From: an uncultured Eubacteriales bacterium
Lineage (GTDB): Bacteria > Bacillota > Clostridia > Christensenellales > CAG-138
Length of the DNA: 64,000 nucleotides
NCBI GenBank assembly: GCA_900544965.1
Contig: UQXE01000003.1
Coordinates: 15,120-79,119, forward strand
Direction: 5' to 3'
The translations under genes were made by a program, and so were the position numbers. Shown here piece by piece: positions 4,280-61,600 of this stretch. Position 1 is the first letter of the stretch, and the number at the start of each line of letters is the position of its first letter. The notes below the pieces were generated by a model. It saw nothing but the letters and a program-made list of their open reading frames with translations, did no database searches and was not told where the DNA came from.

Positions 4280-4564
4280 AATATTCCTCCCTTAAGCATA
4301 TGATCTTGCATTTAGCCTTGCATTATAATATCATAGTTCCATCAAACTTGATAACGTTTTATTTTAAGGGAAAACGGCGGCTTAACAAATAATTTTTTAT
4401 TCGTGGTATTCGACATTGTTTTCAATGATGATCTGTTAAAATTAAGGTCCATTGTATTGATTAAAGTTATATATTATGATATTGTTTATATATACTTTAT
4501 AGTAATAGGAGGTAATAACTATGCAAGTTCAAATGCGACGATTGTTTCTAATGGTACTGTGATA

Positions 4565-5173
4565 ATGTTTCTATTCACAATGCCATATGTTCTTGCCGAA
4601 GATGGAAACGCCGCGCGTTCGGTTTATCTGAACTGCTGGTGGAGCGACGTAAACGAAGTCTTTTATCACCAAAGTCAACCGGTAATGTGCTACAAATCCG
4701 CGGTAAGCGACAGCCTTCTCACAGCCGAAAGGATCAAGAACTATTGCAGGGCCGGTTTTATCCAATGGGGCAGCGCCACAGGATTTAGTATTGCTGAAAC
4801 CACAAGTCCGACCTCGGCCGATATACTGATTGACGGGGTATCCAGGGCAACGGCTATCGGACGTGGCGTTTCTCTTTACGCATATGCCGCGGTTCTTCCC
4901 GCCAATACAACATACGTAGATATAGGCGTATATAACGGAAAAAACTATACCATAAGAAAGTTCGCGGCCAGGGTTAATGTGCTTTTTATTGAAAACTCCA
5001 TGAACAGCGAATCGGAATGGCGGAAGGTGGCCGTACACGAAATAGGGCATGCTTTGGGCTATACAGGCCACTTTAACGGCGGATACGTGATGACGCAATA
5101 TTTTGAAGATATCCAATCCCGGCCCAGCACAAAGGAATTCAACCATCTCGGCCAGATCTATGACAGATTTTAG
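4565..5173 (+). CDS. Metzincin-type zinc metalloprotease (secreted; signal peptide apparently disrupted)
   Basis: Contains HEIGHALGYTGH (HExxHxxGxxH). The ORF is open from 4403, but the only good RBS (AGGAGG) serves an ATG at 4521 in another frame, which stops after 13 codons. See findings. Confidence 0.6.
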   Translation: MFLFTMPYVLAEDGNAARSVYLNCWWSDVNEVFYHQSQPVMCYKSAVSDSLLTAERIKNYCRAGFIQWGSATGFSIAETTSPTSADILIDGVSRATAIGRGVSLYAYAAVLPANTTYVDIGVYNGKNYTIRKFAARVNVLFIENSMNSESEWRKVAVHEIGHALGYTGHFNGGYVMTQYFEDIQSRPSTKEFNHLGQIYDRF

Positions 5174-5214
5174 TGAAATTGAATATTAATATAATAAGTT
5201 AGGAGGCAACCATA

Positions 5215-5814
5215 ATGAACTCAAAGGTTATTTTCAAAACATGTTGCATGCTTATCGCCATTCTCTTATTGGCTATGAGCATATTTGGATGCACGGCCAG
5301 TCCTTCGAATTCCCCTGAAGAGGACGGCGGACAGACGAGCCAGGGTTCCGCAGTATACGGGGATAAGCAGAAAAGCCTTGACGACCTTGTCAAAAACGCG
5401 GATCTTATCGTTTATGGCGTAGCGGGAAAGGTAATATTGGAACAGGAAGCTGGAGATACGATTGAGTTTCGTGTTGAAAAATGTATAAAAGGCTTGGACG
5501 GGGACACGATCAGGACGGCTAACCCCAAAACCAATATAATTAACATAATGCAGATGTATTCAGTTCCGACCAGGTTTGAGGAAGGTCAACGTTACGTTCT
5601 AGCCTTAGCCACTATTGACAGCGTCCTTGACGAGGAAGCAGCAAAATTGGGCATAGTAAGGAACTGCGTCCTTGGCGCGGAAAGACAGGGTTTGTTTCAG
5701 GTAGACGATTCGGGCAGGGTAACATGGGACGAGAGTTTTGATTCAGAACTCAAAACCAAAAACCCAACCGTTGACGAGCTGCTATCCCAGTTTGAGGGTA
5801 TGCTTGCGAAATAA
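5215..5814 (+). CDS. Hypothetical lipoprotein
   Basis: 199-aa ORF. AGGAGG RBS. Signal peptide ends in the lipobox-like LAMSIFGC. Confidence 0.55.
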   Translation: MNSKVIFKTCCMLIAILLLAMSIFGCTASPSNSPEEDGGQTSQGSAVYGDKQKSLDDLVKNADLIVYGVAGKVILEQEAGDTIEFRVEKCIKGLDGDTIRTANPKTNIINIMQMYSVPTRFEEGQRYVLALATIDSVLDEEAAKLGIVRNCVLGAERQGLFQVDDSGRVTWDESFDSELKTKNPTVDELLSQFEGMLAK

Positions 5815-7711: not shown

Positions 7712-9511
7712 TCAGGCGCACCTCTCAGATCCGCTGCCATTGAGCCACTCGGACTGAGCGTCCCACATCTCGCGGTAAAGGCCGTTATTCTGCATAAGCT
7801 CATCATGCGTCCCCAGCTCCGCCAGCTCCCCTGAATCCATTACGGCAATCCTGTCGGCTATGCGGCACGATCCCAGTCTGTGGGTAACTATTATGGCGGT
7901 ATTCTCTTTGGCTATCTCAGCAAACTTTTTATACACCCTGGTCTCCTCCAGCGGATCGATCGCCGCGGTAGGCTCATCCAGCACGATAAGGTCATGGTTT
8001 CTGAACAGGCCCCGCGCAATCGCAATCCTCTGCCATTGGCCTCCCGATACATCCACGCCGTCAAATTCCTTTGAAAGCATCGTATCAAGGCCTTTTGGAT
8101 AGCTTTCCCCCTGTATGTCAACGTCGCCCTGCTCCGCCGCTTTCTCAATCCCTTCCGCCTTTCTCAGGTCCGCTATATGTATATTTCGCTCAAGCGTCAT
8201 CTTATATCTTCCAAAGTCCTGGAATACCGCGGAAGTATTTTTAAACATAGCGTTGGGGTCCGCTTCCCTGGAATCCACCCCGCCGATGCTTACAGCTCCT
8301 GACGTCGGCGTGTAAAGGCCCATCAGCAGCTTTACAAGCGTGGATTTCCCCGCTCCGTTTGTGCCTACGACCGCAAGCGTCTCTCCTGGGCGTATTGTCA
8401 GGCTGACGCCTCTTATGCTCTCCTTCTCACTGCCTGGATATGTAAACCTCACATCCTTCAGCTCAATCCCACGATCAACCTCGACCTTCTTATCGCCCTC
8501 CCTCTCCTGCATCTCCAGCAGCCTGATAAGGTTTACCGCGGCGCCCTTTTCCTGGAGGGCGGAACCCACGTTCTGCACGATCATCTCCTCCATCATGCCG
8601 AAAAGCCATCCTATGCTGGCAAATACCGCGGCGAACTGGCCGGCCGCAATGTCTCCTGATAGCAGCGCAGTGACCAGCAGGTAGAGCAGAAAGCCGTAGG
8701 CGATAAGGGTGAGCGCCTTCATCAACAGCTCAATTATGCCCGATTTGCGCTCGGCGCGCCATTTCTCCTTATTCAGCAGCCCTATGCTTTCCCTGTATAG
8801 CTTTCTATAAAAGGTGAATGCTCCTAACAGCCGTGTTTCCTTGAAAAATTGCCTGTCCCCAACACATTTTTCATAGTGCTCGACGCGCCTGCGCGAAGGG
8901 GCGGATTTTTCCTCCAGCTCGGAAAACGCTTTAACCTTGACTATCTGGCCAAGGAGCACGGGAATGAATACTATTATTGGCGCAATCCCCAGTATTGGCT
9001 TAAGCGTATACAGGTATGCGCCCATCAATATAAAATAGGGCAGATAGCCGAATACCACCAACAGCAACAGTACAACAAGGACCGAACCGTTCGTCGCGCC
9101 GACTTCAGCCTTATTTATCGCGTCCAGCATGGACGGATCCTCAAAGGCGGTCACCGGCAGCTTTTTCACCTTTTTATGGATGTGGGGCAGTATGGAGCTT
9201 TCACACCTTCTCCACAGGTCCGGCAGCCACAGGTTAACAGCCCCATTTAGTAACGGCGTTGCGAGAACAATGGCAAGCACGCCAAGGAACCACAGGATTG
9301 GCTCTGTGTAGCTGCCGCTTCCTACAGCCATTTCAACGGATGTAAACAAATTCGCCGTTAGAATTGTCTGTCCAACCATCAAAGCCATCATCAGCAGCGT
9401 TACAAGCATTATAGAAAACGTAACCTTCTTGTTTTCCTTAAAAAGGTATGGGGTAAAGCTTTTTATAACCTTGTATACCGATACGTTTTTTTGATCCGCG
9501 GCAGTTTTCAT
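7712..9511 (-). CDS. ABC exporter, fused permease/ATPase subunit (heterodimer partner 2)
   Basis: 599 aa. N-terminal TM domain. Walker A GTNGAGKST, signature VSGGQWQRIAIAR, Walker B LIVLDEPTAAID. Confidence 0.9.
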   Translation of the reverse strand: MKTAADQKNVSVYKVIKSFTPYLFKENKKVTFSIMLVTLLMMALMVGQTILTANLFTSVEMAVGSGSYTEPILWFLGVLAIVLATPLLNGAVNLWLPDLWRRCESSILPHIHKKVKKLPVTAFEDPSMLDAINKAEVGATNGSVLVVLLLLVVFGYLPYFILMGAYLYTLKPILGIAPIIVFIPVLLGQIVKVKAFSELEEKSAPSRRRVEHYEKCVGDRQFFKETRLLGAFTFYRKLYRESIGLLNKEKWRAERKSGIIELLMKALTLIAYGFLLYLLVTALLSGDIAAGQFAAVFASIGWLFGMMEEMIVQNVGSALQEKGAAVNLIRLLEMQEREGDKKVEVDRGIELKDVRFTYPGSEKESIRGVSLTIRPGETLAVVGTNGAGKSTLVKLLMGLYTPTSGAVSIGGVDSREADPNAMFKNTSAVFQDFGRYKMTLERNIHIADLRKAEGIEKAAEQGDVDIQGESYPKGLDTMLSKEFDGVDVSGGQWQRIAIARGLFRNHDLIVLDEPTAAIDPLEETRVYKKFAEIAKENTAIIVTHRLGSCRIADRIAVMDSGELAELGTHDELMQNNGLYREMWDAQSEWLNGSGSERCA

Positions 9512-22695: not shown

Positions 22696-23949
22696 TCAGC
22701 TCAGCGCGGCCTGCGCGTTTGCCAGCATCAGCTTTATACGGTTCTCCTGATTTATTGCCGACGCGCCCGCGTCATAGTCTATCGCCACTATGTTCGCGTC
22801 GGGATGCCTTTCCTTTATCGGCTTCATCATCCCCTTCCCCACTATATGATTCGGCAGACATCCAAACGGCTGCGTGCATATGATATTATTAACCCCCTGC
22901 TTGATAAGCTCCAGCATTTCGGCCGTAAGCAGCCAGCCCTCCCCCATCTTTGCCCCAAGTCCAATATACTCCTCCGCCAGCTTGGGCGCGTTTTGAAATG
23001 ATGAGGGCGGGTCAAACGTCCCCTCCCGCGTTATCATGTCAATGATATCGTTTTGCTTCTTTACCAGGAAATTGTGCGCGAACCTTGAAAAAAACGCCTT
23101 TATCTTCTTTATTCCATACAGCTTGTTCTCAATTATGCTCCCGTCGACGCAGTACAGGCAAAAGTCCAAAAGCCCTGGAACCACTACTTCGGCGCCCTCA
23201 GAAACCAGGAAATCCTCTAGGTTATTGTTGCCAAGCGGCGAATATTTCACAAAAATCTCGCCTACCACGCCTACCTTTGCCCTTCGTTCGTTTCTTCTCG
23301 GGATTGAAGCAAAACCGCGGATTATATCCATATAGTTTTGCTTTATCCGGCGGTAGCTTAACACCCTTACCTCCCTCATGCCGTCGGTGAGTCTCCTAGT
23401 CCATTCCTCCGTAAGCCTGTCGCTGTCGCCGGGGTTTAGCTCATATGGCCTGCACTGGTTTTTAAGCGCCATGATAAGGTCGCCGTAGGTGACCGCATAG
23501 AGCATCCTGTGCAGCATAGACAGGGTAAGCTTGAAGCCTGGATTTCTTTCCATGCCAAGAACGTTAAAGGATATAACCGGCACAAAGCCGTATCCAGCCC
23601 TTTCCAGCGCCTTTCTCAATAGAAAAATATAGTTTGAAGCCCTGCACCCCCCGCCGGTCTGCGAAATCAGCAGGGCCGTTTTACGCGGGTCGTACGCGCC
23701 GCTTTCAAGCGCGTCTATCATCTGCCCTATAACGAGCAGGGCGGGATAGCACGAATCATTATGAACATATTTAAGGCCCTTATCGGTCACTCCCCTGCCG
23801 CTGTTTTCTAGAAGATCCGCCTTATAGCCATAGGCGTTTAGAATGTTTATGACCATCCTAAAATGAAACGGAAGCATCGTGGGCACGAGGATCGTGTACT
23901 CCTTCTTCATGGCTCTTGTAAATATAACGCGTTCGCTCCTGTTTTTCAT
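22696..23949 (-). CDS. Acyl-CoA dehydratase activase-related protein (2-hydroxyacyl-CoA dehydratase-like domain)
   Basis: 417 aa. It lies immediately downstream of the activase gene and overlaps it. The sequence type (FTRAMKKEYTILVPTMLP ...) is the one found fused to the C-terminus of long activase proteins. Confidence 0.75.
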   Translation of the reverse strand: MKNRSERVIFTRAMKKEYTILVPTMLPFHFRMVINILNAYGYKADLLENSGRGVTDKGLKYVHNDSCYPALLVIGQMIDALESGAYDPRKTALLISQTGGGCRASNYIFLLRKALERAGYGFVPVISFNVLGMERNPGFKLTLSMLHRMLYAVTYGDLIMALKNQCRPYELNPGDSDRLTEEWTRRLTDGMREVRVLSYRRIKQNYMDIIRGFASIPRRNERRAKVGVVGEIFVKYSPLGNNNLEDFLVSEGAEVVVPGLLDFCLYCVDGSIIENKLYGIKKIKAFFSRFAHNFLVKKQNDIIDMITREGTFDPPSSFQNAPKLAEEYIGLGAKMGEGWLLTAEMLELIKQGVNNIICTQPFGCLPNHIVGKGMMKPIKERHPDANIVAIDYDAGASAINQENRIKLMLANAQAALS

Positions 23950-26929
23950 TTGCGCTTTCCCTTTCTTCCAGCGCGCCTATAAGGCTGCGCAGCCGGATTT
24001 TTACCGCTCCCAGGTTTGTTATCTCATCGATCTTGATCTGAGTATACAGCTTGCCGCTACCTTCAAGGATGGACCTTACCTCATCGGTCGTAACCGCGTC
24101 TATACCGCACCCAAACGACACCAGCTGCACCAGCTCGCAGTCGCTCCTGCCCGCCGCAAACCTGGCCGCGCGGTACAGCCGCGAATGATAGGTCCACTGG
24201 TTGAGGACGTCCACCCTGGCCGGCTTGGCAAGGCGGCGCACGCTGTCCTCGCTGACAACCACAAACCCAAGCGACGCGGCAAGCCTGTCGATCCCATGGC
24301 ATATTTCGGGATCCGCGTGATACGGCCTGCCTGCGAGGATCATTATACGCTTTTTATGGGATTGGGCAAACCTGACAGCCCTCTCTCCCTCGGCGCATAT
24401 ATCATCCATCCATGCTTTATAGGCCCAAAAGCCCGCGCTTACCGCTCTTGCCGCCTGCTGTCTGGTTATATTTATGCCAAGCTGATCTCTAAATAGGAGG
24501 CGCAGCTCCTTTGAAAGTTCCCTCCGGTTGTTAATATTTAAATATGGGAACAGGAACCTGACGTTTTTCAGCGATTCCATATTCGCGTTTAGAAGCTCCG
24601 GATAGTATGCTACCACCGGACAGTTGTAATGGTTGGTTCCGGTCCTTTCATTCACATTATAGGTGAGGCAGGGATAGAATATTGCGTCCACGCCGCGCTC
24701 AATCAGGGTTTCTATATGACCGTGCATGAGTTTTGCGGGATAACAGGCCGTATCCGATGGTATGCTGAACTGGCCCTTTGAATATATTTCCCTGCTGGAC
24801 ATTCCCGAAAATACGACGCTGAAACCAAGCTCTTCAAATATCCCGTGCCAAAGCGGGGCAAGCTCATACATGCCCAGGGCAAGCGGTATGCCGATAACCC
24901 CTCTTTCTCCGTCCCCTGGCTTGAGCGAGCCAAGCTTATCACGCTTGAATTGGTACAGGTTCGGCATGGGGCCTAAGTCGCCTTCATCCGCGGTTTCACC
25001 CGCGCCTTTTGCGCATTGGTTACCGGAAATATACCGCTCTAAACCGTTGAATATGTTTACCGTAAGCTTGCAGCGGTTTGTGCATCCTGCGCATACCCCC
25101 GCCTTTGCGGCGTGGGTAAAGTTCCGCAGTTTATCCCTGTCAAGCAGCGACGTTTTTCCAAGCCCCAGCGACCGAGCGTGAAGCGCCGCGCCGTAAGCGC
25201 CCATCAGCCCCGCGATTTCGGGACGTACCACATTCCGCCCAAGCTCAAGCTCAAAGCACCTCAGCACAGCGTCGCTTAGGAAAGTCCCGCCCTGAACAAC
25301 GATGTTTTCCCCAAGCTCATCAGCCGAATTAGCCCTTATAACCTTATATATCGCGTTTTTAACCACGCTTCTTGACAATCCCGCCGATATGTCCCCGACG
25401 CCAGCGCCATCCTTTTGGGCCTGCTTTACCGACGAATTCATAAATACCGTACATCTGGAACCAAGATCCACAGGCGCCCGCGCCATAAGGCCCAGCCGCG
25501 AAAATTCGCCTATTTCATAGCCCATGGACCGCGCGAACGTTTCAATAAAGGAGCCGCAGCCCGACGAACAGGCTTCGTTGAGCATTATGCTGTCAATCGA
25601 ATTGTTCCTTACCTTAAAGCATTTTATATCCTGCCCACCTATATCAAGGATGAAATCCACATCGGGGCTGAAATGACGCGCCGCCGTATAGTGCGCCATA
25701 GTCTCCACGACGCCTTCATCAATGTGGAACGCGCGCTTTATAAGCTCCTCGCCATAGCCCGTAACCGCGCTTCCCGCTATTTGAATATCATCCCCGCACA
25801 GCTCATAAACGCGTTCAAGCTGGGACTTTACAATGTCAACCGGCGTCCCCCTGTTTGAACCATAATAGGAATGTATCATGCGCCCATCCTCTGAGACCAG
25901 CGCCAGTTTTGTAGTTGTGCTTCCGCAGTCGACGCCCAGATATGCTCTTCCCCTGTATTTTTCCGGCGGCACCGCCGCTACCGTGGACATCGAATGCCGG
26001 CGTTTGAAATCCATATACTCACTTTCACTTCTGAACAAAGGCGCGATGCACCCTTTTCGCCGACTGGTCGCCGCAGCCGTCTCCAGGCCAGCCATAAGCG
26101 CGCCGAACGTATAAGGCTTATCCTGCTTCGAAGCATACAGGGCGGCTCCTATCGCAACGGCGTATAACCCGTAACCAGGGAAAACCGCATCCTTGGTTTT
26201 AAGCTTCAGCGTGTCTACAAAGCGTTCCCTGAGTCCCCTGCTGTAATATAGGGGGCCGCCAAGGAACATTACCTTGCCGTGTATGCTCCTGCCCTGCGCC
26301 AGGCCGGCTATCGTTTGATCAACCACCGCCTGATAGATGCTTGCCGCGACATCCTCCTTGCGCGCGCCCTGATTGAGCAACGGCTGTATATCCGTCTTAG
26401 CGAACACCCCGCAACGCGACGCAATTGGATAGATCCGCTCGTGGCCCATGCTCAGCTCATCAAGCTCCTGGGGGGTTACATCCATAAGCGTAGCCATCTG
26501 ATCTATAAACGCCCCTGTCCCTCCAGCGCAGCTTCCGTTCATCCGTTCGTCAATGGCGCCCTGAAAAAATATGGCCTTCGCATCCTCTCCGCCAAGCTCG
26601 ATTACAACGCTTGTGTCGGGCTCAAGTTCCCTTACGGTTCCCGCTGTGGCGTATACCTCCTGCACAAAGGGTATGCCCGCCGCCCTGGCGACTCCAAGTC
26701 CGGCGGAACCCGAACACGCAACATAGACAGGAACATCTCCAATATATTTCTCGGCGCGCCTCAATAGCTCGGCAGCTTTTTCCCTCACATGCGAGAAGTG
26801 CCGTTCATATAGCTCAAAGGTTATTATACCATCCTGAACAAGAACGATTTTAGCGGTAGTAGAGCCAATATCTATTCCGACAACCGATTTCTTTCCCGTA
26901 TTCAACTTAGAAATCATCATATTTTCCAT
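23858..26929 (-). CDS. Acyl-CoA dehydratase activase-type protein (two BcrAD/BadFG ATPase domains plus a dehydratase-like domain)
   Basis: 1023 aa with two actin-fold ATPase repeats, VGIDIGSTTAKIVL and LGVDCGSTTTKLAL, each followed by GGQD/GGED motifs. Confidence 0.85.
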   Translation of the reverse strand: MENMMISKLNTGKKSVVGIDIGSTTAKIVLVQDGIITFELYERHFSHVREKAAELLRRAEKYIGDVPVYVACSGSAGLGVARAAGIPFVQEVYATAGTVRELEPDTSVVIELGGEDAKAIFFQGAIDERMNGSCAGGTGAFIDQMATLMDVTPQELDELSMGHERIYPIASRCGVFAKTDIQPLLNQGARKEDVAASIYQAVVDQTIAGLAQGRSIHGKVMFLGGPLYYSRGLRERFVDTLKLKTKDAVFPGYGLYAVAIGAALYASKQDKPYTFGALMAGLETAAATSRRKGCIAPLFRSESEYMDFKRRHSMSTVAAVPPEKYRGRAYLGVDCGSTTTKLALVSEDGRMIHSYYGSNRGTPVDIVKSQLERVYELCGDDIQIAGSAVTGYGEELIKRAFHIDEGVVETMAHYTAARHFSPDVDFILDIGGQDIKCFKVRNNSIDSIMLNEACSSGCGSFIETFARSMGYEIGEFSRLGLMARAPVDLGSRCTVFMNSSVKQAQKDGAGVGDISAGLSRSVVKNAIYKVIRANSADELGENIVVQGGTFLSDAVLRCFELELGRNVVRPEIAGLMGAYGAALHARSLGLGKTSLLDRDKLRNFTHAAKAGVCAGCTNRCKLTVNIFNGLERYISGNQCAKGAGETADEGDLGPMPNLYQFKRDKLGSLKPGDGERGVIGIPLALGMYELAPLWHGIFEELGFSVVFSGMSSREIYSKGQFSIPSDTACYPAKLMHGHIETLIERGVDAIFYPCLTYNVNERTGTNHYNCPVVAYYPELLNANMESLKNVRFLFPYLNINNRRELSKELRLLFRDQLGINITRQQAARAVSAGFWAYKAWMDDICAEGERAVRFAQSHKKRIMILAGRPYHADPEICHGIDRLAASLGFVVVSEDSVRRLAKPARVDVLNQWTYHSRLYRAARFAAGRSDCELVQLVSFGCGIDAVTTDEVRSILEGSGKLYTQIKIDEITNLGAVKIRLRSLIGALEERESANEKQERTRYIYKSHEEGVHDPRAHDASVSF

Positions 26930-27266: not shown

Positions 27267-27764
27267 TTATGATATATAATCCAGTATGGCCAATACGTCG
27301 TTTGTATCCACCACTCCGTCCCAGTTGCAGTCGGCAAGTATCAGCGCCAGCTCAGTATCGCTCGCAAGGCCGTTGCAATAGCGCAGGAGCAGGTTTGCGT
27401 CGCTTGCGCTTATCACCCCGTCAAGGTTCACGTCGCCTATATAAACCGGAACTGCTAATATAGCATGCGGTGGTAGAGACGGAGCTTCCAGAAGCTCGAT
27501 TGCGTCACTGATATCGATTACGCCGTCACCGTTAGCATCGGCAATGTTCTTATGCAGATCAGAGATAAGATCAAAGTCTCCGCGAACATATTTTAGGATA
27601 TACAGCGCGTCGCCGCTGTTTACTCTTCCGTCCAGATTCGCGTCTCCCTGCGAAATATAATCTCTGCCAAAGGAATAGGGTTCGGCAGCGTTCGATACCG
27701 GGATAATTGATATAAACAATGCGATAGCAAGGGCTAAGGTTAATAAAACCCTGGCTTTTTTCAT
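27267..27764 (-). CDS. Secreted double-dockerin protein, paralog 1
   Basis: 165 aa. AGGAGG RBS. Signal peptide MKKARVLLTLALAIALFISIIPVSNA. Four D-x-N-x-D-G loops: GDANLDGRVNSGD, ADANGDGVIDISD, GDVNLDGVISASD, ADCNWDGVVDTND. Confidence 0.85.
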   Translation of the reverse strand: MKKARVLLTLALAIALFISIIPVSNAAEPYSFGRDYISQGDANLDGRVNSGDALYILKYVRGDFDLISDLHKNIADANGDGVIDISDAIELLEAPSLPPHAILAVPVYIGDVNLDGVISASDANLLLRYCNGLASDTELALILADCNWDGVVDTNDVLAILDYIS

Positions 27765-27806
27765 GTTAAACGTCCTCCTTGCTCAAAATTTAGCTCGTTA
27801 GCTTAA

Positions 27807-28289
27807 TTATGACAGAAAATCCAGTATGACCAATACGTCGTCTGTATCCACCGCTCCGTCCCCGTTGCAGTCGGCAAGTATAAGCGCCAGCCCTGCGTCA
27901 CCGACAAGACCGTTGCAATAGCGCAGGAGCAGGTTTGCGTCCTCCACCGTTATGCTGTTGTCCAGGTTTACGTCGCCTATGGCCAAGGTTACTCTATATG
28001 TCCTGAACGTTTTATCACCAAGGATCAGGATGGCGTCGTCGATATTTACACTTCCATCCAGATTTGCGTCAGCAAACGCCATGTGACCTTGCGATATCAT
28101 ATCAAAGTCGCCCCTTAGATACTTGAGAATAAACAGTGCGTCATCGGAATTTATCTTTCCATCCAGATTGGCGTCGCCAGTATACAAATACGTTGAGCCA
28201 AAGGGATAGATTGTAATAGCGTTTGATATTACAGGTACCGATAACGCTATGCACAGCAAAATCGCTAAAATTATTCTTACTCTTTTCAT
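27807..28289 (-). CDS. Secreted double-dockerin protein, paralog 2
   Basis: Start chosen at MKRVRIIL (GGGAG lies 9 nt upstream; ATGs at 28295 and 28307 are alternatives). Same architecture: GDANLDGKINSDD, ADANLDGSVNIDD, GDVNLDNSITVED, ADCNGDGAVDTDD. Confidence 0.8.
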   Translation of the reverse strand: MKRVRIILAILLCIALSVPVISNAITIYPFGSTYLYTGDANLDGKINSDDALFILKYLRGDFDMISQGHMAFADANLDGSVNIDDAILILGDKTFRTYRVTLAIGDVNLDNSITVEDANLLLRYCNGLVGDAGLALILADCNGDGAVDTDDVLVILDFLS

Positions 28290-28322
28290 CTTCATGTTCT
28301 CCCGCAAATTATCTTGCTGTTT

Positions 28323-28817
28323 TTATGACAGATAATCCAGTATGGCCAATACGTCGTTAGTATCAACCGCTCCATCCCTATTGCAATCGGCCAGACAAAG
28401 CGCAAGCGCTGTTCCCGCGACAGAGCCGTTGCAATATCTCAAAAGCAGGTTAGCGTCGCTTGCGTTTATCACCCCGTCAAGGTTTACGTCGCCTATAAGA
28501 TAGGCTCTAAGGAATGGATTCGTTACTCCATTCTCAAGTATCAGTATAGCGTCGTCAATATCCACCGTTCCATCGCCGGTTACGTCGGCTATTTGGGCAT
28601 GAGCGCTTGAGATGAACTGCAAATCCCCCCTGATATACTTGAGAATATATAGGGCGTCGTCACCGTTTACGTATCCGTCAAAGTTAACGTCACCTCTGTA
28701 TATTACCATCAAGCCAAACGGGCTTGATGAGCTGTTTGCGCTTGAAATGGGCGCAAACGCCAGCACCATGAGACACGCCATCATCAATGCTAATATAAAT
28801 CTAAGCTTTCTAAACAT
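28323..28817 (-). CDS. Secreted double-dockerin protein, paralog 3
   Basis: Start at MFRKLRF (GGAGG lies 8 nt upstream). Loops: GDVNFDGYVNGDD, ADVTGDGTVDIDD, GDVNLDGVINASD, ADCNRDGAVDTND. Confidence 0.8.
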   Translation of the reverse strand: MFRKLRFILALMMACLMVLAFAPISSANSSSSPFGLMVIYRGDVNFDGYVNGDDALYILKYIRGDLQFISSAHAQIADVTGDGTVDIDDAILILENGVTNPFLRAYLIGDVNLDGVINASDANLLLRYCNGSVAGTALALCLADCNRDGAVDTNDVLAILDYLS

Positions 28818-28921
28818 ATTTGTTACCTCCATTATTAATTATACCTGGTATGCATCTTTAACTGTTCGGCCAGCTGCGCACGCACCGGCACTTTTTAAGG
28901 TTGGTTCATCGTACGGCTTGG

Positions 28922-29428
28922 TTAAGACGACAGGTAGTCCAGTATGGCCAGAACGTCGTTTATGTCTATAACGCCGTCCGCATTGCAGTCGGCAAGCGTT
29001 ATGGCAAAGTTCCCCCGCCAGCTTGCTTGTCCGTTTAAATTCGACAAAAGTAGATTCGCATCCTTTGCGTCAATTATTCCGTCAAGGTTTACATCCCCGA
29101 TACGGTAAGCTGTGCGGTATCTTTGAATTACTCCCTCTTCAAGAATGAGAACGGCGTCGTCGATATCGATTACGCCATCCCAGTTTGCGTCAGCGATGGA
29201 GCGGTGCGTATCCGAAATGAACCTTCCGCTCCCGCTTAGATAATTGAGAATAAAAAGCGCGTCGTCATCGTCTATCACTCCGTCAAGGTTAGCGTCGCCC
29301 TTGTATATCATCTTTGTGCCAAACGGGGCCGTTACGCCCTGGGCGGCTGCTCCGGAATAGGGTATGATGTACAGCACCGCCAGCAAGCACATTGCCAAAG
29401 CTATTATAATTCGTGGTTTTCTAATCAT
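28922..29428 (-). CDS. Secreted double-dockerin protein, paralog 4
   Basis: 168 aa with a signal peptide. Loops: GDANLDGVIDDDD, ADANWDGVIDIDD, GDVNLDGIIDAKD, ADCNADGVIDIND. Confidence 0.8.
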   Translation of the reverse strand: MIRKPRIIIALAMCLLAVLYIIPYSGAAAQGVTAPFGTKMIYKGDANLDGVIDDDDALFILNYLSGSGRFISDTHRSIADANWDGVIDIDDAVLILEEGVIQRYRTAYRIGDVNLDGIIDAKDANLLLSNLNGQASWRGNFAITLADCNADGVIDINDVLAILDYLSS

Positions 29429-29442
29429 CTTCTCCCCCTGTT

Positions 29443-29940
29443 TTAATTAAGACGCGACGCCGCCAGATAATCCAGCAGCGCGTATACATCGTTCACGTTT
29501 ATTACGCCGTCGTTGTTAAAATCAGCCGGCGGGAGCGCGATTTCGCCTATCCCGACACTGCCGTTGCAATACTGCAATAGCAGGCTGGCGTCTGCCGCGG
29601 TGACCAAACCGTCAAGGTTCACATCTCCAACCTTGATTGGCTTAAGCAATGTTGCAGCTATATTGCCCTCCAGAATCGCGATAGCATCGCTTATCGTGAT
29701 AATCCTGTCATTATTTGCATCAGCACGGGTCTTATGAATATCGGACAACAGGGCAGCCTCGCCCTTCAAATATTTTAATATGAACAGAGCGTCGTCCGAG
29801 TTAACCGTACCGTCGAGATTTGCGTCGCCTACGGCTATCAATACTTGCGAGATTGGCGTAACAGCGCCAGCGCCAGGCGTAATGGATATAATGATTGCTA
29901 TGCAGAGTGCAAATATAAGGATATTTCTCTTCCTAAACAT
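29443..29940 (-). CDS. Secreted double-dockerin protein, paralog 5
   Basis: Start at MFRKRNILIF (GGAGG lies 8 nt upstream). Loops: GDANLDGTVNSDD, ADANNDRIITISD, GDVNLDGLVTAAD, ADFNNDGVINVND. Confidence 0.8.
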   Translation of the reverse strand: MFRKRNILIFALCIAIIISITPGAGAVTPISQVLIAVGDANLDGTVNSDDALFILKYLKGEAALLSDIHKTRADANNDRIITISDAIAILEGNIAATLLKPIKVGDVNLDGLVTAADASLLLQYCNGSVGIGEIALPPADFNNDGVINVNDVYALLDYLAASRLN

Positions 29941-29966
29941 GTTATCTACCTCCTTTAAATACAAAA

Positions 29967-30455
29967 TCACGCCGCCAGATAATCCAGCAGCGCATATACA
30001 TCGCTCATGTTTATTATGTCGTCGTTGTTAAAATCCGCAAGCGGAAGCGCGATTCCCCCGACTTCCACACTGCCGTTGCAATATTGCAGAAGCAGGCTTG
30101 CGTCTGCGGCCGTTATCAAGCCGTCAATGTTTACATCGCCGAGCCAGATTCCCTCACGCAGTCTTCGAACTACATTACCCTCTAGAATCGCGATAGCATC
30201 GTCTATCGTGATACATCTATCATTATTAGCATCTGCATAGCTCTTGTGAATATCGGACAATAGGGTAGTTTCGCCCTTCAAATACTTTAATATGAATAAC
30301 GCGTCATCCGAATTAAGCGTGCCGTCGAGGTTCGCGTCGCCCTCAATCATGAAACGTAAACGACCGCCATAATGATTAGCCATGGCCGCCGGGGCCATAG
30401 AAACCAGCATGGCAAGGCATAATAATACAGCCAACAGCTTCCTTTTCTTTAACAT
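29967..30455 (-). CDS. Secreted double-dockerin protein, paralog 6
   Basis: 162 aa. GGGAGG RBS. Signal peptide MLKKRKLLAVLLCLAMLVSMAPAAMA. Loops: GDANLDGTLNSDD, ADANNDRCITIDD, GDVNIDGLITAAD, ADFNNDDIINMSD. Confidence 0.8.
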   Translation of the reverse strand: MLKKRKLLAVLLCLAMLVSMAPAAMANHYGGRLRFMIEGDANLDGTLNSDDALFILKYLKGETTLLSDIHKSYADANNDRCITIDDAIAILEGNVVRRLREGIWLGDVNIDGLITAADASLLLQYCNGSVEVGGIALPLADFNNDDIINMSDVYALLDYLAA

Positions 30456-31040
30456 TTCTTATTTCACCTCCCTCTGTTTTTTGGGGAACGCTTACAGGAT
30501 AAACCTAAGTGCGGTTAAAATCTTGATGCAGAGATATTGCCCTTACAATAAAACAGTTATTGTCACTGCCAAAACCCGCATTACAGCAACCGGGTCCATT
30601 GGAATCCAAATTGATACTTTTTTCTATTCAGTCAAACTAACACTATATAATTGCCAATAGGTTTGGCATTAAAACCTGCTTTCTATCACCCCCCCTATTT
30701 GCTGTCCTTAACGAGATCGACGTGAGCATTGCGAAAATATGCAATGCTTCTCAAATCCTGTTGCATACCCCCGAGTATATTCAAAGATTAACATACATGC
30801 CAGTAAATGTAAATACGTTATGTATTACATATAATCATAATGTTCTCGCAAAATTTGTCGAATAAGGGAGCGTTTAGTTTAAGCGGTCTTTATTTGATAT
30901 TCAGCGCCTGCAATCATGGATTACGGGTAATGGTTCCGTTGGCCGTTTGCAGTGTTCTCGCGGCACTGAAGCGGCACTGAATATTTGACAGGCGTAATAA
31001 CTTAGTCAATGGACATTATGTAAAATTTAAACAGCATGTT

Positions 31041-31073
31041 TAAACAAAGACGGCATGGCTCTGCCGCCATGCC
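31041..31073 (-). terminator. Rho-independent terminator after jag
   Basis: The minus strand reads GGCATGGC ggcaga GCCATGCC followed by GTCTTTGTTT. It lies about 35 nt below the jag stop. Confidence 0.55.
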
Positions 31074-31105: not shown

Positions 31106-32236
31106 TTATATTTGTTCCTTGCTCCTCGTTCCCGTTGCGCGCCTTCTGGGCGTTACCACAACGCGCCTGTTGGGCTCCTCGCCCTCGCTGTGCGTGCTTA
31201 CATGAGGGTTGTTTTGCAGGGCTGAATGCAATATCCTTCGCTCATACGGATTCATAGGTTCCAGTGCTTTTGCCCTTCCTGACGACCTCACCTGCGAGGC
31301 TACTTTTCTGGCAAGCCCGGTTAGCGTTGCCTCCCGCTTTTTTCTATACCCCTCCGTATCAACCGTTACCCTGCGGTAACCCGATTCACGGCGGTTCTTG
31401 TTTGTCACAAGCGACGTGATATATTGAAGCGCGTCCAGCGTTTCGCCCCTGTAACCGATTAAAACTCCCTTGGAGCCGCTGTTTATGCGAATCATTAGGG
31501 CTTCCTCGTCCGCATAAGCGCTCAGTTCGCCCTCTATACCCATTAACCTTACCGTTTCAGCCAAAAACACCGCTCCCGGCTCATCCTGCGCGGCTTTTAC
31601 GCTGTATTCACGCTCTTCAGGATTGATATTAGCGGCATTGCCGAAGCTGCTTTCAGGCTTCCTGTTAGCCGGCCTGCTTCTTTCATTTTTGCGGTCTTGA
31701 CCGGACGGCCTGACGCTTTTAACGGCCCCATCACCGCTGTTTTGAAGCTCAGCGCCCTTATCAGCGCACTGGGTATTGCCTTGGGCAACGCTTTCCCTTG
31801 GCTGTTTGCGTTCCTCGGGCCTTACGTTCTGTTCGCCCGCAGGATTCGGCGCGTTCTCCAAAGTCCGCTCGGCAGCCTTTGGATGAGATTGTCGGGGCGG
31901 TATAGCCGTGTCGGCGCCCGTGCCGCCCTTATTCTGCTTTGGCCTCTCAGGTTCCTTCCTTCTTGGCTCATCCCTGCGCTCAGAAGGCCTGCTATCGCGC
32001 CTGCCGCGCTCGTCCCTGCGGGACAACACGGAAAAGTCCGGAACCTCCACTTCCTCGGCCGCCTTCTGGATAAGCCTTACAATGGCGGGTTTGGCTCCAA
32101 AGCCCAATATGCCCTTTGTCTCCTGCTTTATTATCTGTATCTCGACCTCGTCGATGGATATCTCAAGCTGCTGCAACCCCTTGAAGATTGCCTCGTCAAC
32201 GGTTTTGCCGCTGACCTCTATGGATTTCATATCCAT
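31106..32236 (-). CDS. jag: RNA-binding protein Jag/KhpB (Jag_N + KH + R3H) with a long low-complexity insert
   Basis: N-terminus MKSIEVSGKTVDEAIFKGLQQL (Jag_N). C-terminal R3H domain LEPMNPYERRILHSAL. Its start overlaps the yidC stop by 1 nt. Confidence 0.85.
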   Translation of the reverse strand: MDMKSIEVSGKTVDEAIFKGLQQLEISIDEVEIQIIKQETKGILGFGAKPAIVRLIQKAAEEVEVPDFSVLSRRDERGRRDSRPSERRDEPRRKEPERPKQNKGGTGADTAIPPRQSHPKAAERTLENAPNPAGEQNVRPEERKQPRESVAQGNTQCADKGAELQNSGDGAVKSVRPSGQDRKNERSRPANRKPESSFGNAANINPEEREYSVKAAQDEPGAVFLAETVRLMGIEGELSAYADEEALMIRINSGSKGVLIGYRGETLDALQYITSLVTNKNRRESGYRRVTVDTEGYRKKREATLTGLARKVASQVRSSGRAKALEPMNPYERRILHSALQNNPHVSTHSEGEEPNRRVVVTPRRRATGTRSKEQI

Positions 32237-52418: not shown

Positions 52419-52507
52419 GGAGAGATGTCCGAGTGGTTTATGGAGCTGGTCTTGAAAACCAGTGATGTCGCAAGGCACCGGGGGTTCGAATCCCTCTCTC
52501 TCCGCCA
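52419..52507 (+). tRNA. tRNA-Ser (anticodon UGA), CCA encoded
   Basis: Acceptor GGAGAGA/TCTCTCC. Anticodon stem CTGGT/ACCAG with loop CTTGAAA. Long variable arm. TTCGAAT T-loop. Confidence 0.9.
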
Positions 52508-52555: not shown

Positions 52556-52647
52556 GGAGAAGTACCCAAGTGGCTGAAGGGGCTCCCCTGCTAAGGGAGT
52601 AGGCTGGGGTGACTGGCGCGAGGGTTCAAATCCCTCCTTCTCCGCCA
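52556..52647 (+). tRNA. tRNA-Ser (anticodon GCU), CCA encoded
   Basis: Acceptor GGAGAAG/CTTCTCC. Anticodon stem CTCCC/GGGAG with loop CTGCTAA. Long variable arm. TTCAAAT T-loop. Confidence 0.9.
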
Positions 52648-55668: not shown

Positions 55669-55694
55669 GCTAAGATTGTTTTATCTGGATTTAT

Positions 55695-58600
55695 ATTTCA
55701 ATCCACGCACCCCACACGGGGTGCGACCACTCGTCACTGTCGTTTTACCGCTGCTGCCAATATTTCAATCCACGCACCCACACGGGGTGCGACTTGAGCC
55801 GTCCTATTCAATCCACGCACCTGACTGATTTCAATCCACGCACCCACACGGGGTGCGACCATCAATGCGGGCGTACGCATGTCAAGTCGCAGTATTTCAA
55901 TCCACGCACCCCACACGGGGTGCGACGTTGTACCCATAGTTGTGTCATAATATACCCATAATTATTTCAATCCACGCACCCCACACGGGGTGCGACTCCG
56001 CAAAGATATAACGATTGATTCATCTTTAGCTATTTCAATCCACGCACCCCACACGGGGTGCGACTGCGCGACATAATCCAAAAGACATGCATAGTACCCG
56101 AATTTCAATCCACGCACCCCACACGGGGTGCGACCGGCATGCCGCGTGGGAGGCCGTAATGGACAAATGCATTTCAATCCACGCACCCCACACGAGGTGC
56201 GACAGGATATCGGCTTAAATTGGATTTTACAGAGGTAATTTCAATCCACGCACCCCACACGGGGTGCGACGGCACTCAGCCTTACCATTGCGGCCAGGCT
56301 GAGATATTTCAATCCACGCACCCACACGGGGTGCGACCCAACAACCCCGACTTAGCCATAAAAACATTTACATTTCAATCCACGCACCCACATGGGGTGC
56401 GACCTTGCGTACAATATCGTGCATAGCTGGTCAGATGCTATTTCAATCCACGCACCCACATGGGGTGCGACCCATCCCCGTGGAGCAGGCGCGGGAGTTG
56501 GTACAAGGCATTTCAATCTATGCACCCACACGGGGTGCGACGGTGATTATATCACATGCCTCTAGAGATTGCAAATCATTTCAATCCACGCACCCACACG
56601 GGGTGCGACCTTCTGGACCGCTTGAATAATAGATATAGGGTCCCATTTCAATCCACGCACCCCACACGGGGTGCGACAGAACAACACATACAGGCTTAAT
56701 GCAATCGACAAAAAATTTCAATCCACGCACCCACATGGGGTGCGACGCGCATCCCCACGTATGGGGGCAAGCTCGTCGAATTTCAATCCACGCACCCACA
56801 TGGGGTGCGACAATTTAAGTGATATGCGCAAAGCTGATGCGATGGATTTCAATCCACGCACCCACATGGGGTGCGACACGCACTGTATTGCGGCTACCCC
56901 GCGTCACTCGACATTTCAATCCACGCACCCACATGGGGTGCGACCCCTTTCATCGTGGACAGCCACTCTAATGCTTTGAATTTCAATCCACGCACCCACA
57001 TGGGGTGCGACGGGGCGTTTTTCGCCCCTCTGGTGCATATTTTGCCAATTTCAATCCACGCACCCACATGGGGTGCGACAATTTAAGTGATATGCGCAAA
57101 GCTGATGCGATGGATTTCAATCCACGCACCCACATGGGGTGCGACAGCGGGCGCGTAGTTGATATCTACGCGCCTGTCAATTTCAATCCACGCACCCACA
57201 TGGGGTGCGACGAGGCCAACACGGGGGATAAGGTGTTTTTGGCGGATTTCAATCCACGCACCCACATGGGGTGCGACGCTTTAGCGTTAATAAGGTCTTA
57301 GTGATCGCACCGAATTTCAATCCACGCACCCACATGGGGTGCGACACCTAATGGCCGACGCAAGTTTAATGATAAGCGCCATTTCAATCCACGCACCCAC
57401 ATGGGGTGCGACGGTTTTACCGCTCCGCTAAATCGCCAGCGCAGGCAATTTCAATCCACGCACCCACATGGGGTGCGACTTACATAGCTAACGAGGGATT
57501 GAGTATCCTTGAATTTCAATCCACGCACCCACATGGGGTGCGACAGACAGGAGGCCGCAAAATCCAGCCTTGCCAAATATATTTCAATCCACGCACCCAC
57601 ATGGGGTGCGACGCTTTGTGACTGTCACAATCTGTCACAACTGTCACATTTCAATCCACGCACCCACATGGGGTGCGACATAAGTTCTCCTGGTCGCAAT
57701 CCCGTTGCGACCAATTTCAATCCACGCACCCACATGGGGTGCGACCGGTAAAACTTGTATGTTCTGCCTTCAGCGTTAACATTTCAATCCACGCACCCCA
57801 CACGGGGTGCGACCAACGCTATATTGCTCTGTGACCTCGGGCAGCATATTTCAATCCACGCACCCCACACGGGGTGCGACCGCCTAATCCCTGCGCCTTC
57901 AAGGCGGTAACAGAATTTCAATCCACGCACCCCACACGGGGTGCGACGGGATTTGCCAGCCATTCGGCTCGCTCTCATCTCCTATTTCAATCCACGCACC
58001 CCACACGGGGTGCGACATGTATAGATGATTTGGTGAAAGAGGCTTAATATATTTCAATCCACGCACCCCACACGGGGTGCGACCACAATGGCCGCAAGTA
58101 CCAGGCGCAGCCAAGATAATTTCAATCCACGCACCCCACACGGGGTGCGACGTCCGGCAGAGCGTCGGAGGCTATTATCACAACAGATTTCAATCCACGC
58201 ACCCCACACGGGGTGCGACTCCGATATTCCAATCGGCCACAATCTTTTTAACATTTCAATCCACGCACCCCACACGGGGTGCGACGGAGGATAGATATGT
58301 TTATCAGGAGACTATATTAATTTCAATCCACGCACCCCACACGGGGTGCGACTCTGTGATACGGTTGGCTCCGGCATACTTATAAAATTTCAATCCACGC
58401 ACCCCACACGGGGTGCGACTCTGTTGCAACCAAATTTCAGCTATCTCCTTTTGAATTTCAATCCACGCACCCCACACGGGGTGCGACTTCAAAATAGCCT
58501 AGAACTCTAATGCACGAGCCGATTTCAATCCACGCACCCCACACGGGGTGCGACGAAAATGTAGCCTCTGACCTGATGGACAACTTCCCAATTTCAATCC

Positions 58601-61600
58601 ACGCACCCCACACGGGGTGCGACGAGACAGGCATATGCGATCAATATAAGATAACATGGAATTTCAATCCACGCACCCCACACGGGGTGCGACGAGTTCT
58701 TTCTCACCGTTAATCTCAGTGGACGGGAATTTCAATCCACGCACCCCACACGGGGTGCGACTCAGGCATTCGCCTTCTTTTTGCTTCAGCTCGCATTTCA
58801 ATCCACGCACCCCACACGGGGTGCGACTGGGCCGTGGACGATCCAAGGGCCTCCGCAATAATTTCAATCCACGCACCCCACACGGGGTGCGACGGGTACC
58901 ATCCACCGTCCTGGATGGTACCAAATAATTTCAATCCACGCACCCCACACGGGGTGCGACGTGGCGCTGATCGCGCTTACGGCGTGGTGCGGCGATTTCA
59001 ATCCACGCACCCCACACGGGGTGCGACAAGGAAATGCAAAAAGCCTATGGATATATAGGTATTTCAATCCACGCACCCCACACGGGGTGCGACTGTCACA
59101 CCATTAAAATTGGGGAGACAGGCCACAAGATTTCAATCCACGCACCCCACACGGGGTGCGACGGCGGAGCGGTAAAACCATCGGCCGTTAACATAGGCAT
59201 TTCAATCCACGCACCCCACACGGGGTGCGACTTTATATCGCCAACGAGGGACTGAGTATCCTCGAATTTCAATCCACGCACCCCACACGGGGTGCGACGG
59301 TTCTTACCCGAGGGCGCTGTGGTAGGTACAGTGCATTTCAATCCACGCACCCCACACGGGGTGCGACCGTTATATATCGACATTGTTGTCCGGAAGAAAC
59401 AAAATTTCAATCCACGCACCCCACACGGGGTGCGACTGAGTATAGCGCACTTAAAAGTACAGCGCTACAAATTTCAATCCACGCACCCCACACGGGGTGC
59501 GACACCGATAAAAAGGTTTTTACCTTAAGGATGCAAAATTTCAATCCACGCACCCCACACGGGGTGCGACTTTGGCATTGACAAGCTAATTATCATGTAG
59601 TATTAATTTCAATCCACGCACCCCACACGGGGTGCGACAACATAAAACAGCGTTAAAATATATTGAATGGCGCATTTCAATCCACGCACCCCACACGGGG
59701 TGCGACCCTCAATGACGGCACCTCCAACTGGGGCTACGCATTTCAATCCACGCACCCCACACGGGGTGCGACTGCTGTTTCACTGCTTCGGGCCGGATCG
59801 TGTCCGATTTCAATCCACGCACCCCACACGGGGTGCGACACGCAACCGTTACATCAGGATCATCAGACTACAAATTTCAATCCACGCACCCCACACGGGG
59901 TGCGACGCCTTTAAAGATAGGAGGCTTTCTGCTATTACTGCATTTCAATCCACGCACCCCACACGGGGTGCGACGTGCGCTGTATATGGTGTACATGGCG
60001 TACGCGGATAGGATTTCAATCCACGCACCCCACACGGGGTGCGACTAGCTTGATTCTCTTTGCTTTAGTGGTACTTATTATTTCAATCCACGCACCCCAC
60101 ACGGGGTGCGACTGGGTTGTCAATAAACAATTCAAAAGTCGAAAAGATTTCAATCCACGCACCCCACACGGGGTGCGACGCCGTAACGGCTGGACACGCG
60201 CCGAGTATAACCGCGATTTCAATCCACGCACCCCACACGGGGTGCGACGGCGATTTAGTTTTCCCTGTCTGGACAGATACAAGTATTTCAATCCACGCAC
60301 CCCACACGGGGTGCGACATCAGGTATTTGCATATGCCCCCAAAGAGGGGGCAATTTCAATCCACGCACCCCACACGGGGTGCGACGCGCGGATGACACCA
60401 TACCACGGCCAATGATATGCAATTTCAATCCACGCACCCCACACGGGGTGCGACGCGATAAAGACCTCATGGGCGCGCGTGATAAATATTCATTTCAATC
60501 CACGCACCCCACACGGGGTGCGACCTCTATCTGGCTTTTTTCAACGATGCGATCCGCTGATTTCAATCCACGCACCCCACACGGGGTGCGACCTGGTAAG
60601 GCGCTTGGCCTTCCGGTTGATAAACAAAATTTCAATCCACGCACCCCACACGGGGTGCGACTAGCTTCCCATGCATCCGCAAGTTTGACAAATGTATTTC
60701 AATCCACGCACCCCACACGGGGTGCGACTAGGATCCCCCCCACCCTGCGGTTCACGGGGCTCATTTCAATCCACGCACCCCACACGGGGTGCGACGGCTT
60801 TGACCGGTGTAACTGTCTATCGACCGCGCAAATTTCAATCCACGCACCCCACACGGGGTGCGACTTGTCAGCCTGTATCTCATACTCCCTCCTGATCATT
60901 TCAATCCACGCACCCCACACGGGGTGCGACCGAGCTTACGGTAAACGGGGACGGCAGCAGGCAAATTTCAATCCACGCACCCCACACGGGGTGCGACGCG
61001 CTATGTCAGACACTTATTACAACTTTGGGTATCATTTCAATCCACGCACCCCACACGGGGTGCGACCAGAAACCGACATCGAAGCTCTGATTAAGGAAGC
61101 AATTTCAATCCACGCACCCCACACGGGGTGCGACTCGTAATGCAAAAGAGATTGTAACCCACAATACGATTTCAATCCACGCACCCCACACGGGGTGCGA
61201 CGCGTTTTCAAGACAGGCGGTAATTTCCTGCCGCATATTTCAATCCACGCACCCCACACGGGGTGCGACGTCTTTCACATGGAGAGGGTGTAGTCGGCGG
61301 TAAATTTCAATCCACGCACCCCACACGGGGTGCGACGTTATAAAATACTCTGTCGTCATGAGTGTCGTAATATTTCAATCCACGCACCCCACACGGGGTG
61401 CGACACCACTCTCGGAGTCTTTTGAGTGTTTATCCTCAAGATTTCAATCCACGCACCCCACACGGGGTGCGACACCTATCCCCCGTTACATGGGACAAAA
61501 AATAACAAATTTCAATCCACGCACCCCACACGGGGTGCGACTTGTCAAGCGGTGTGGGTTGGCGTGGATTGCTTAAATTTCAATCCACGCACCCCACACG

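Follow-up and report, generated by a model that had tools for sequence, protein, structure and literature searches.

We describe an array of six tandem genes, named D1 to D6, in a 64,000-nucleotide stretch of DNA (the window) from an uncultured Eubacteriales bacterium of the order Christensenellales (GTDB lineage CAG-138; assembly GCA_900544965.1, contig UQXE01000003.1, positions 15,120 to 79,119). Each gene encodes a small protein with the features of a secreted product, made of two dockerin modules and hardly anything else. The array recurs without change in hundreds of independent gut-metagenome assemblies of a single uncultured species and is also present, with losses, in two sister lineages. 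Its genes are under purifying selection, and the two modules of each protein, M1 and M2, are distinct, by the same differences in all paralogs and orthologs. It is on account of this last feature that we propose that D1-D6 act as secreted, calcium-dependent, hetero-bifunctional adaptors, in which two dockerins would bridge two different cohesin-type partners, a reading to which we give an even chance. The genes are numbered in the order of transcription, the jag-proximal gene being the first:

D1, 29967..30455, minus strand: first gene, 162 amino acids; open reading frame (ORF) with ribosome-binding site (RBS) GGGAGG and signal-peptide features; Dockerin_1 57.7 bits, in two stretches; subfamily D1/D2.
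D2, 29443..29940, minus strand: 165 amino acids from the ATG at 29940; RBS AGGAGG; Dockerin_1 66.5 bits; subfamily D1/D2.
D3, 28922..29428, minus strand: 168 amino acids; Dockerin_1 42.6 bits; ADCN cysteine only.
D4, 28323..28817, minus strand: 164 amino acids from the ATG at 28817; Dockerin_1 68.3 bits; YCNG/ADCN cysteine pair and one extra cysteine.
D5, 27807..28295, minus strand: 162 amino acids from the ATG at 28295; Dockerin_1 50.2 bits; cysteine pair.
D6, 27267..27764, minus strand: last gene, 165 amino acids; Dockerin_1 60 bits; cysteine pair.

All six co-directional ORFs announced by the original prediction are present on the minus strand between positions 27267 and 30455. Gene starts were taken as the ATG preceded by a GGAGG-like RBS 6-10 nt upstream; the ORFs called mechanically span 162-175 codons, and three of them begin slightly ahead of the ATG that is likely to be the real start, by a few codons, that of D2 reaching back to a GTG at 29970. 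From D1 to D6 the spacers measure 26, 14, 104, 27 and 42 nt, which matches the spacing of 14-104 nt and the separate GGAGG-type RBS first described for each gene. The position of the array between the activase genes and jag is also borne out, its flanks being a BcrAD_BadFG/DUF2229 activase gene (23858-26929) on one side and jag (31106-32236) on the other.

A search with the Pfam Dockerin_1 model (PF00404), which had been proposed as a check, recognized two stretches in all six proteins, with scores of 42.6-68.3 bits for a cut-off of 22.9, and the EF-hand_1 and EF-hand_6 models remained at 17.6-22.4 bits, under their cut-offs of 25-25.4. Pfam and NCBIfam scans of D1-D6 detected no domain besides dockerin, in agreement with the claim that the proteins have no catalytic, carbohydrate-binding, cohesin or anchor region. 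Outside the dockerins they hold only a signal peptide, 8-15 N-terminal residues and a linker of 11-14 residues; the range of 10-20 residues first given for the linker was too wide. This linker length makes the four calcium loops of each protein evenly spaced, about 35 residues apart, which is the distance first noticed within a module. The modules are type-I-like, with a duplicated segment of about 22 residues in which a 12-residue EF-hand-like loop precedes a helix. Ligand positions 1, 3, 5 and 12 of the loops are kept, and a few substitutions affect loop position 6 (G to R, D or N). Judged by sequence heuristics only, the signal peptides have Sec-type features in all products, that is, a K/R-rich N-terminus (3-4 K/R in the first 8 residues), a 12-residue hydrophobic core scoring 3.0-3.6, and an A-x-A-type site near residue 26-29. 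Lipoprotein anchoring was considered and rejected, as no canonical lipobox precedes the signal-peptide cysteines. The mature proteins are about 14 kDa and acidic, with 18-23 D+E versus 6-9 K+R. When all six frames of the window were scanned for the D-x-[ND]-x-[DN]-G-x5-D loop, it was confined to the six genes, and no dockerin-bearing enzyme was found in the window by this motif.

The six paralogs form two subfamilies, D1/D2 and D3-D6, in line with the grouping proposed earlier under the reverse numbering (paralogs 5-6 and 1-4, respectively). D1 and D2 are 68% identical, D3-D6 are 50-57% identical to one another, and identities between the two groups are 44-52%. The YCNG and ADCN cysteines occur together only in D4, D5 and D6, and the cysteine pair is thus restricted to the earlier paralogs 3, 2 and 1, as had been noted. 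When the four repeats are considered separately (M1R1, M1R2, M2R1 and M2R2), each shows a mean identity of 57-72% among the six paralogs, versus 24-62% between repeat types, and the difference between M1 and M2 is consistent across all paralogs and orthologs. Inside one module, the identity between repeats 1 and 2 is no more than 24-62%, with differences at contact positions 10, 11, 17 and 18. Near-identical repeats, the trait that goes with a dual binding mode, are typical of enzyme-borne type I dockerins without being obligatory, and they are not found in the D1-D6 modules. Such an internal asymmetry suggests a single binding mode per module and argues against a symmetric dual mode. Along the repeat, helix positions 12-17 are nearly invariant, and variation is found mostly at positions 7 and 9-11, plus position 18 of M2R1; positions 10, 11 and 18 belong to the classical cohesin-contact positions of type I dockerins. 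The conservation of the helix exceeds what calcium binding alone requires. As the helix-face residues concerned have no calcium role, their near-invariance suggests a specific protein interface.

The confident AlphaFold2 model of D6 (predicted local distance difference test score, pLDDT, 85.5; predicted template-modelling score, pTM, 0.71) contains two helical dockerin units, with a short strand before each. Dockerins taken from cohesin complexes (6KGF, 3UL4, 4UYQ, 1OHZ) superpose on this model with a root-mean-square deviation (rmsd) of 1.2-1.7 Å and target-normalised TM-scores of 0.72-0.85; calmodulin-type structures match it only at E>1. The identification of the modules as dockerins is thus supported both by the profile searches and by the predicted fold. 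The best full-length PDB match of the model is the double dockerin of Clostridium thermocellum Clo1313_0689, for which crystal and nuclear magnetic resonance structures are available (8X39/8X3A), and here the arrangement of the modules differs (TM-score 0.37-0.45, rmsd about 8 Å). In sequence, the modules look like the usual dockerins carried by enzymes (E about 5e-7), and the profile match to the C. thermocellum double dockerin is weak (E 2.3e-4) and covers part of the chain only. The double-dockerin architecture that D1-D6 share with the C. thermocellum protein may be convergent.

D3 is the exact sequence of cluster P0004, which is present in 516 blocks (258 contigs) of the assembly collection. 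In independent assemblies from different samples the gene order is kept: rplI, dnaB, rpmH, rnpA, yidD, yidC, jag, the six dockerin genes, the BcrAD_BadFG/DUF2229 activase gene, glmS. Moreover, two diverged sister lineages, B and C, carry the array at the same site, and orthology follows gene order. In lineage B the series runs D1, D2, a decayed extra copy, D3, D4, a 46-residue remnant of D5, and D6; in lineage C it is reduced to D1, D2, a D3 pseudogene in three fragments, and D6, D4 and D5 being absent. The decayed copies of lineage B lie at L089:6372-6656 and 8267-8407 (fragments of 94 and 46 residues), and the D3 pieces of lineage C at L091:9413-9912 (38, 32 and 79 residues). Gene loss within the array is ongoing in the sister lineages. 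The ratio of nonsynonymous to synonymous substitution rates (dN/dS) is 0.21-0.23 for the D1 orthologs of lineages B and C, 0.16 for those of D2 (79-81% identical), 0.13 for the D3 ortholog of lineage B (85% identical), 0.19 for the D4 ortholog of the same lineage (85% identical) and 0.21-0.23 for the D6 orthologs (75-82% identical). With ortholog dN/dS values of 0.13-0.23 overall, for a dS of 0.4-1.2, and a dS that is saturated between most paralogs, the family is old, protein-coding and under purifying selection. Individual copies are nevertheless dispensable, a pattern of birth-and-death evolution, and the loss of D3, D4 or D5 tolerated by the sister lineages suggests partial redundancy.

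These data also bear on the possibility that the array is an artefact or a decaying remnant, in which the ORFs would be fragments of a larger gene, mis-assembled repeats or pseudogenes. The truncated and frameshifted copies of related lineages could be cited in its favour. However, a separate RBS, start codon, signal peptide and stop codon can be assigned to each copy in the window, and the ortholog dN/dS is that of constrained genes. The recurrence of the same six genes in independent assemblies from many samples rules out mis-assembly and fragments of one gene, and paralogs that are only 44-68% identical make a repeat collapse implausible. We therefore regard this explanation as refuted and the genes as real and functional, and the statement that these are separate genes holds. 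Among the matches listed for jag neighbourhoods of other Clostridia (Jag identity at most 64%), none of the 80 contained two or more dockerin-loop motifs; the insertion of the array is therefore lineage-specific. A second, unlinked locus at L102:9438-10510 (also on L103 and L104) carries two tandem dockerin-dockerin (DocDoc) genes. Their products, of 170 and 169 residues, share 55% identity, and each shows 40-45% identity with D1-D6. Genes for DUF1002 and DUF4130 proteins flank the locus, and contigs of this type come from the same samples as lineage C.

To place D1-D6 in a wider family, an exhaustive profile search was run with the DocDoc alignment; at E<=1e-3 it yielded 9438 cluster representatives, of which 680 reached E<=1e-10. 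Proteins with numerous tandem dockerin loops dominate the top 150, and the relatives scanned with Pfam hold 4-11 dockerin modules and never an enzyme domain. In the large ones (9-11 dockerins), the partner domains are of the adhesin type only (SpaA, Listeria-Bacteroides repeat, SdrD_B-like), with no enzymes. The sampled examples of these poly-dockerins belong to Clostridia of low G+C content (GC, 25-29%). Their modules are mostly M2-like. The idea that poly-dockerins consist of alternating M1/M2 pairs was tested and a regular alternation was not found; the fixed M1-M2 pair therefore belongs to the small D1-D6-type family. Genomic context was sampled for four relatives, one of them being the second DocDoc pair described above. 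Two others, P0077 (762 residues; L099:1079-7015) and P0072 (440 residues; L100:10001-14857), lie directly upstream of cell-envelope glycopolymer loci, with LytR-CpsA-Psr (LCP)/Wzz/CpsD/CpsB and GT4/Alg14/GT28/GtrA/GT2 clusters, and may thus be linked to cell-surface glycopolymers. In another organism, a gene for four dockerins and nothing else has a neighbour, at a distance of 1.6 kb, whose product combines a signal peptide, a Cohesin domain (25.6 bits, for a Pfam cut-off of 24.1), three Cadherin-like domains and a C-terminal transmembrane anchor. These two genes (L105:6189-7646 and L105:9309-10262), which lie among cell-wall and housekeeping genes on a low-GC Clostridia contig, are a candidate for a minimal cohesin/poly-dockerin pair. 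When this cohesin domain was used as a query against an index of 5.8 billion proteins, one relative only was returned, and it was unrelated.

In the mechanism that we propose, D1-D6 would be exported and then loaded with calcium, and each module would bind one cohesin-type beta-sandwich partner via its helix face, probably in a single mode as its internal asymmetry suggests. Such a protein could join, for instance, a cell-anchored cohesin protein to a second cohesin-bearing protein, at the surface or secreted, and its working principle would be the inverse of that of a classical adaptor scaffoldin, which combines cohesin and dockerin. The six paralogs would probably provide dosage and a modest tuning of binding via positions 7 and 9-11, rather than six specificities that have nothing in common. 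In this respect the original prediction, which saw in the six copies a panel of specificities, may retain some truth as far as slight tuning is concerned, but a broad panel is not supported, given the nearly invariant helix faces and the tolerated loss of D3, D4 or D5. The bridging or capping of cohesins that it put forward is plausible. We infer the partners and the bridging from the conserved difference between M1 and M2 and from the four-dockerin gene found near a cohesin gene. In addition, a review reports that the first module of dDoc_0689, the double dockerin of Clo1313_0689, binds the cohesin of ScaD and that double-dockerin proteins are expressed (PMC12484212). Two further observations speak for the adaptor reading: the large relatives join their dockerins to adhesin-type structural domains only, and Christensenellales of the cockroach gut, which often have dockerins, include at least one genome with a Pfam cohesin.

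Several observations weigh against bridging by D1-D6. No cohesin gene lies in the window, as was claimed from the start, or in the 10 kb on either side (about 84 kb in total), and a local profile search with two cohesin domains against all ORFs of the window and of same-lineage loci gave nothing below E=1. Half of the four sampled relatives adjoin cell-wall glycopolymer loci and not cohesin genes. Moreover, the sister lineages lose copies, so no single paralog is essential. Among the gut genomes of UHGG, dockerins are encoded by 26,894, cohesins by 6,562 and both by 4,333 (PMC12997984), and dockerins without a detectable Pfam cohesin are therefore the rule. Rumen Clostridiales include a class with 'few dockerins, no cohesins'. 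A link to the 'mucinolysome' genus Limousia was considered and dropped, since this genus is unrelated and belongs to the Oscillospiraceae.

The lack of a cohesin within about 84 kb, together with the general scarcity of Pfam cohesins in dockerin-bearing gut genomes, also fits a role without any cohesin, in which D1-D6 would be secreted calcium-binding or matrix proteins whose four EF-hand-like loops and acidic surface bind a cell-wall glycopolymer, the S-layer or a host component. We give this explanation a minor but real chance. The excess of acidic residues in the mature proteins and the location of P0077 and P0072 upstream of LCP/Wzz/CpsB-type and glycosyltransferase clusters are consistent with it, and cohesin-deficient, dockerin-rich species such as Ruminococcus albus are documented, for which alternative anchoring has been proposed. 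Nevertheless, helix-face residues devoid of a role in calcium ligation are nearly invariant, which suggests a specific protein interface; the Pfam EF-hand models stay below threshold, cohesins are the only dockerin ligands documented experimentally in the literature, and the adjacency to glycopolymer loci, seen in two sampled cases only, may be a coincidence. Alternatively, the free DocDoc proteins could act as competitive caps or in interference between species, occupying the producer's own or foreign cohesins (those of Ruminococcus amylosomes or cellulosomes, for example) and thereby regulating or sabotaging assembly, or letting the cell hitch onto foreign complexes, without bridging proteins of the producer. 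Small proteins that are predicted to be freely secreted and have no anchor would suit this function, and the species is prevalent in human-gut metagenomes alongside cohesin-bearing species. According to published work, a C. thermocellum double dockerin binds across species, with a higher affinity for a C. cellulolyticum cohesin. The birth-and-death turnover and the variation at contact positions 10/11 would likewise fit an arms-race-like interaction. We nonetheless hold capping or interference to be unlikely: dN/dS is far below 1, with no overall sign of diversifying selection, conservation of the helix faces is high, cohesins and dockerins usually interact in a species-specific manner, and the foreign target is hypothetical.

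The region upstream of D1 contains three features:

31052..31073, minus strand: terminator-like hairpin ending the rnpA-yidD-yidC-jag operon; 8-bp stem with 6 GC pairs and a T-run, the stem being kept in three lineages.
30861-30834, minus strand: promoter-like site TCGACA-16-TATGAT, from a promoter scan.
30456..30861, minus strand: array-specific upstream region, comprising the promoter-like site and a leader of about 380 nt, possibly structured; from conservation in three lineages.

The hairpin at 31052..31073 is predicted to mark the upstream boundary of a transcription unit proper to the array. The leader shows about 78-80% column identity across the three lineages, although the dS of the genes is 0.4-1.2. 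In this leader, RNAalifold predicts an 18-bp long-range helix (GGGGGUAUGCAACAGGAU / AUCCUGUAAGCGUUCCCC) that joins the two most conserved islands, plus a conserved hairpin; covariation is almost nil, in a comparison of three lineages only. A search of the region upstream of the array for riboswitches and other RNA families described in Rfam gave no match, at gathering or at permissive thresholds. A metagenome scan with the 3' arm of the leader gave 23 matches, two of which carry the leader (5' arm, and dockerin loops downstream), the others being due to chance, and no diverged copies were gained. The leader may be a new cis-regulatory RNA, which we put forward as a lead only. Within the array, a consensus scan detected a 12-bp terminator-like hairpin with a T-rich tail at 29968-29994 (minus strand), overlapping the 3' end of D1, which could attenuate read-through into D2-D6.

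Combining this leader with the adaptor reading leads to a broader scenario, an 'inverse adaptor' system. Free DocDoc proteins of a non-cellulolytic, cohesin-poor human-gut member of the Christensenellales would cross-link its own and/or foreign cohesin-bearing surface proteins, so that cells would aggregate or become attached to the amylosomes or cellulosomes of other species, and a new structured leader RNA of about 380 nt would control the array. Taken as a whole, this scenario seems to us rather improbable.

Elsewhere in the window, a large CRISPR (clustered regularly interspaced short palindromic repeats) array, read on the plus strand, occupies 55694-61900. Its 32-33-nt repeat, ATTTCAATCCACGCACCC(C)ACAYGGGGTGCGAC, is present in about 90 copies and recurs every 67 nt or so. 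The repeat has two variants, by which sub-arrays can be told apart, the ORFs with FNPRTPHGVR / FQSTHPTRGAT are spurious read-throughs of the repeats, and no cas genes were seen within the window. The segment 52400-55500 has a low GC content (about 40%) and lies beside two tRNA genes (52419-52504 and 52556-52644); besides a gene for a HicB-like antitoxin, it contains ORFs that match no Pfam family. As its gene content varies between strains (L095 versus L096), the segment probably represents a mobile or defence island that has been integrated. Finally, at 4403-5814, a gene for a secreted matrixin-like protein (Peptidase_M10) is followed by a gene for a 199-residue lipoprotein with no Pfam match, which is duplicated in some strains (L098).

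How do D1-D6 compare with known systems? The novelty of the architecture implied by the original prediction was overstated, since stand-alone double dockerins and poly-dockerins have already been published, including a crystal structure. In C. thermocellum, double dockerins occur as stand-alone proteins or on the S8 protease Clo1313_0689 (Chen et al. 2019, 2024, as cited in the review PMC12484212), and in dDoc_0689 the two modules are described in the same review as packing together, with the ScaD cohesin bound by the first and an unclear role for the second. Like D1-D6, these consist of two tandem dockerins joined by a short linker on a secreted polypeptide, and one form has no partner domain. 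Unlike D1-D6, they are encoded by a single gene, their host, which has many cohesins, is a classical producer of cellulosomes, and the solved example is carried by a protease. Acetivibrio cellulolyticus has a DocDoc protein, ZP_09465996, called 'highly unusual' by its authors (PMC4217186); compared by its description, it is a dockerin-dockerin protein like D1-D6, but it is the product of a single gene in a host with an elaborate cohesin repertoire. Larger assemblies are represented by a seven-dockerin protein in Ruminococcus flavefaciens 007c/17 (PMC4081043) and by the 'polydockerin' proteins of a rumen catalog, with up to 13 modules and an unknown function (bioRxiv 10.1101/272690). These poly-dockerins also consist of tandem dockerins without a catalytic module; however, they have many, mostly M2-like modules and often adhesin-type domains, whereas D1-D6 make up a small family of their own, in which the M1-M2 pair is fixed.

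Adaptor scaffoldins such as ScaB of A. cellulolyticus and of Clostridium clariflavum (PMC4582956) share with D1-D6 the proposed principle of a non-catalytic connector between two components of a cohesin-dockerin network. They carry cohesins and one dockerin, whereas D1-D6 carry two dockerins and no cohesin and could therefore join only two cohesin-bearing partners; D1-D6 are not members of the adaptor scaffoldin family. The 'double dockerins' of fungi (Neocallimastigomycota, CBM10-type) resemble D1-D6 in their name and in their tandem arrangement on secreted proteins, but they are found attached to enzymes. The fold known for fungal dockerins is an unrelated one, which is not EF-hand-like.

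On the basis of their sequences, D1-D6 are minimal members of a rare, stand-alone multi-dockerin class. In the literature searched, neither a tandem multigene array of these proteins nor the present Christensenellales family was found to have been reported. To our knowledge, almost all work on dockerins concerns plant-fibre degraders; here, the minimal two-dockerin form has been expanded into a conserved, selected family of six genes in a prevalent uncultured lineage of the human gut. If D1-D6 do bind two different partners, they would represent a simple natural protein "glue" that assembles surface complexes outside classical cellulosomes, and could serve as compact orthogonal connectors in synthetic biology. 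If instead the genome has no cohesin, the locus would be a good test case for the role of dockerins in cohesin-less organisms, which is a long-standing puzzle. Altogether, what distinguishes this locus from the systems described so far is the conserved array of six genes, the fixed M1-M2 hetero-pair of internally asymmetric modules, the human-gut Christensenellales host and the unusually conserved upstream region of about 400 nt.

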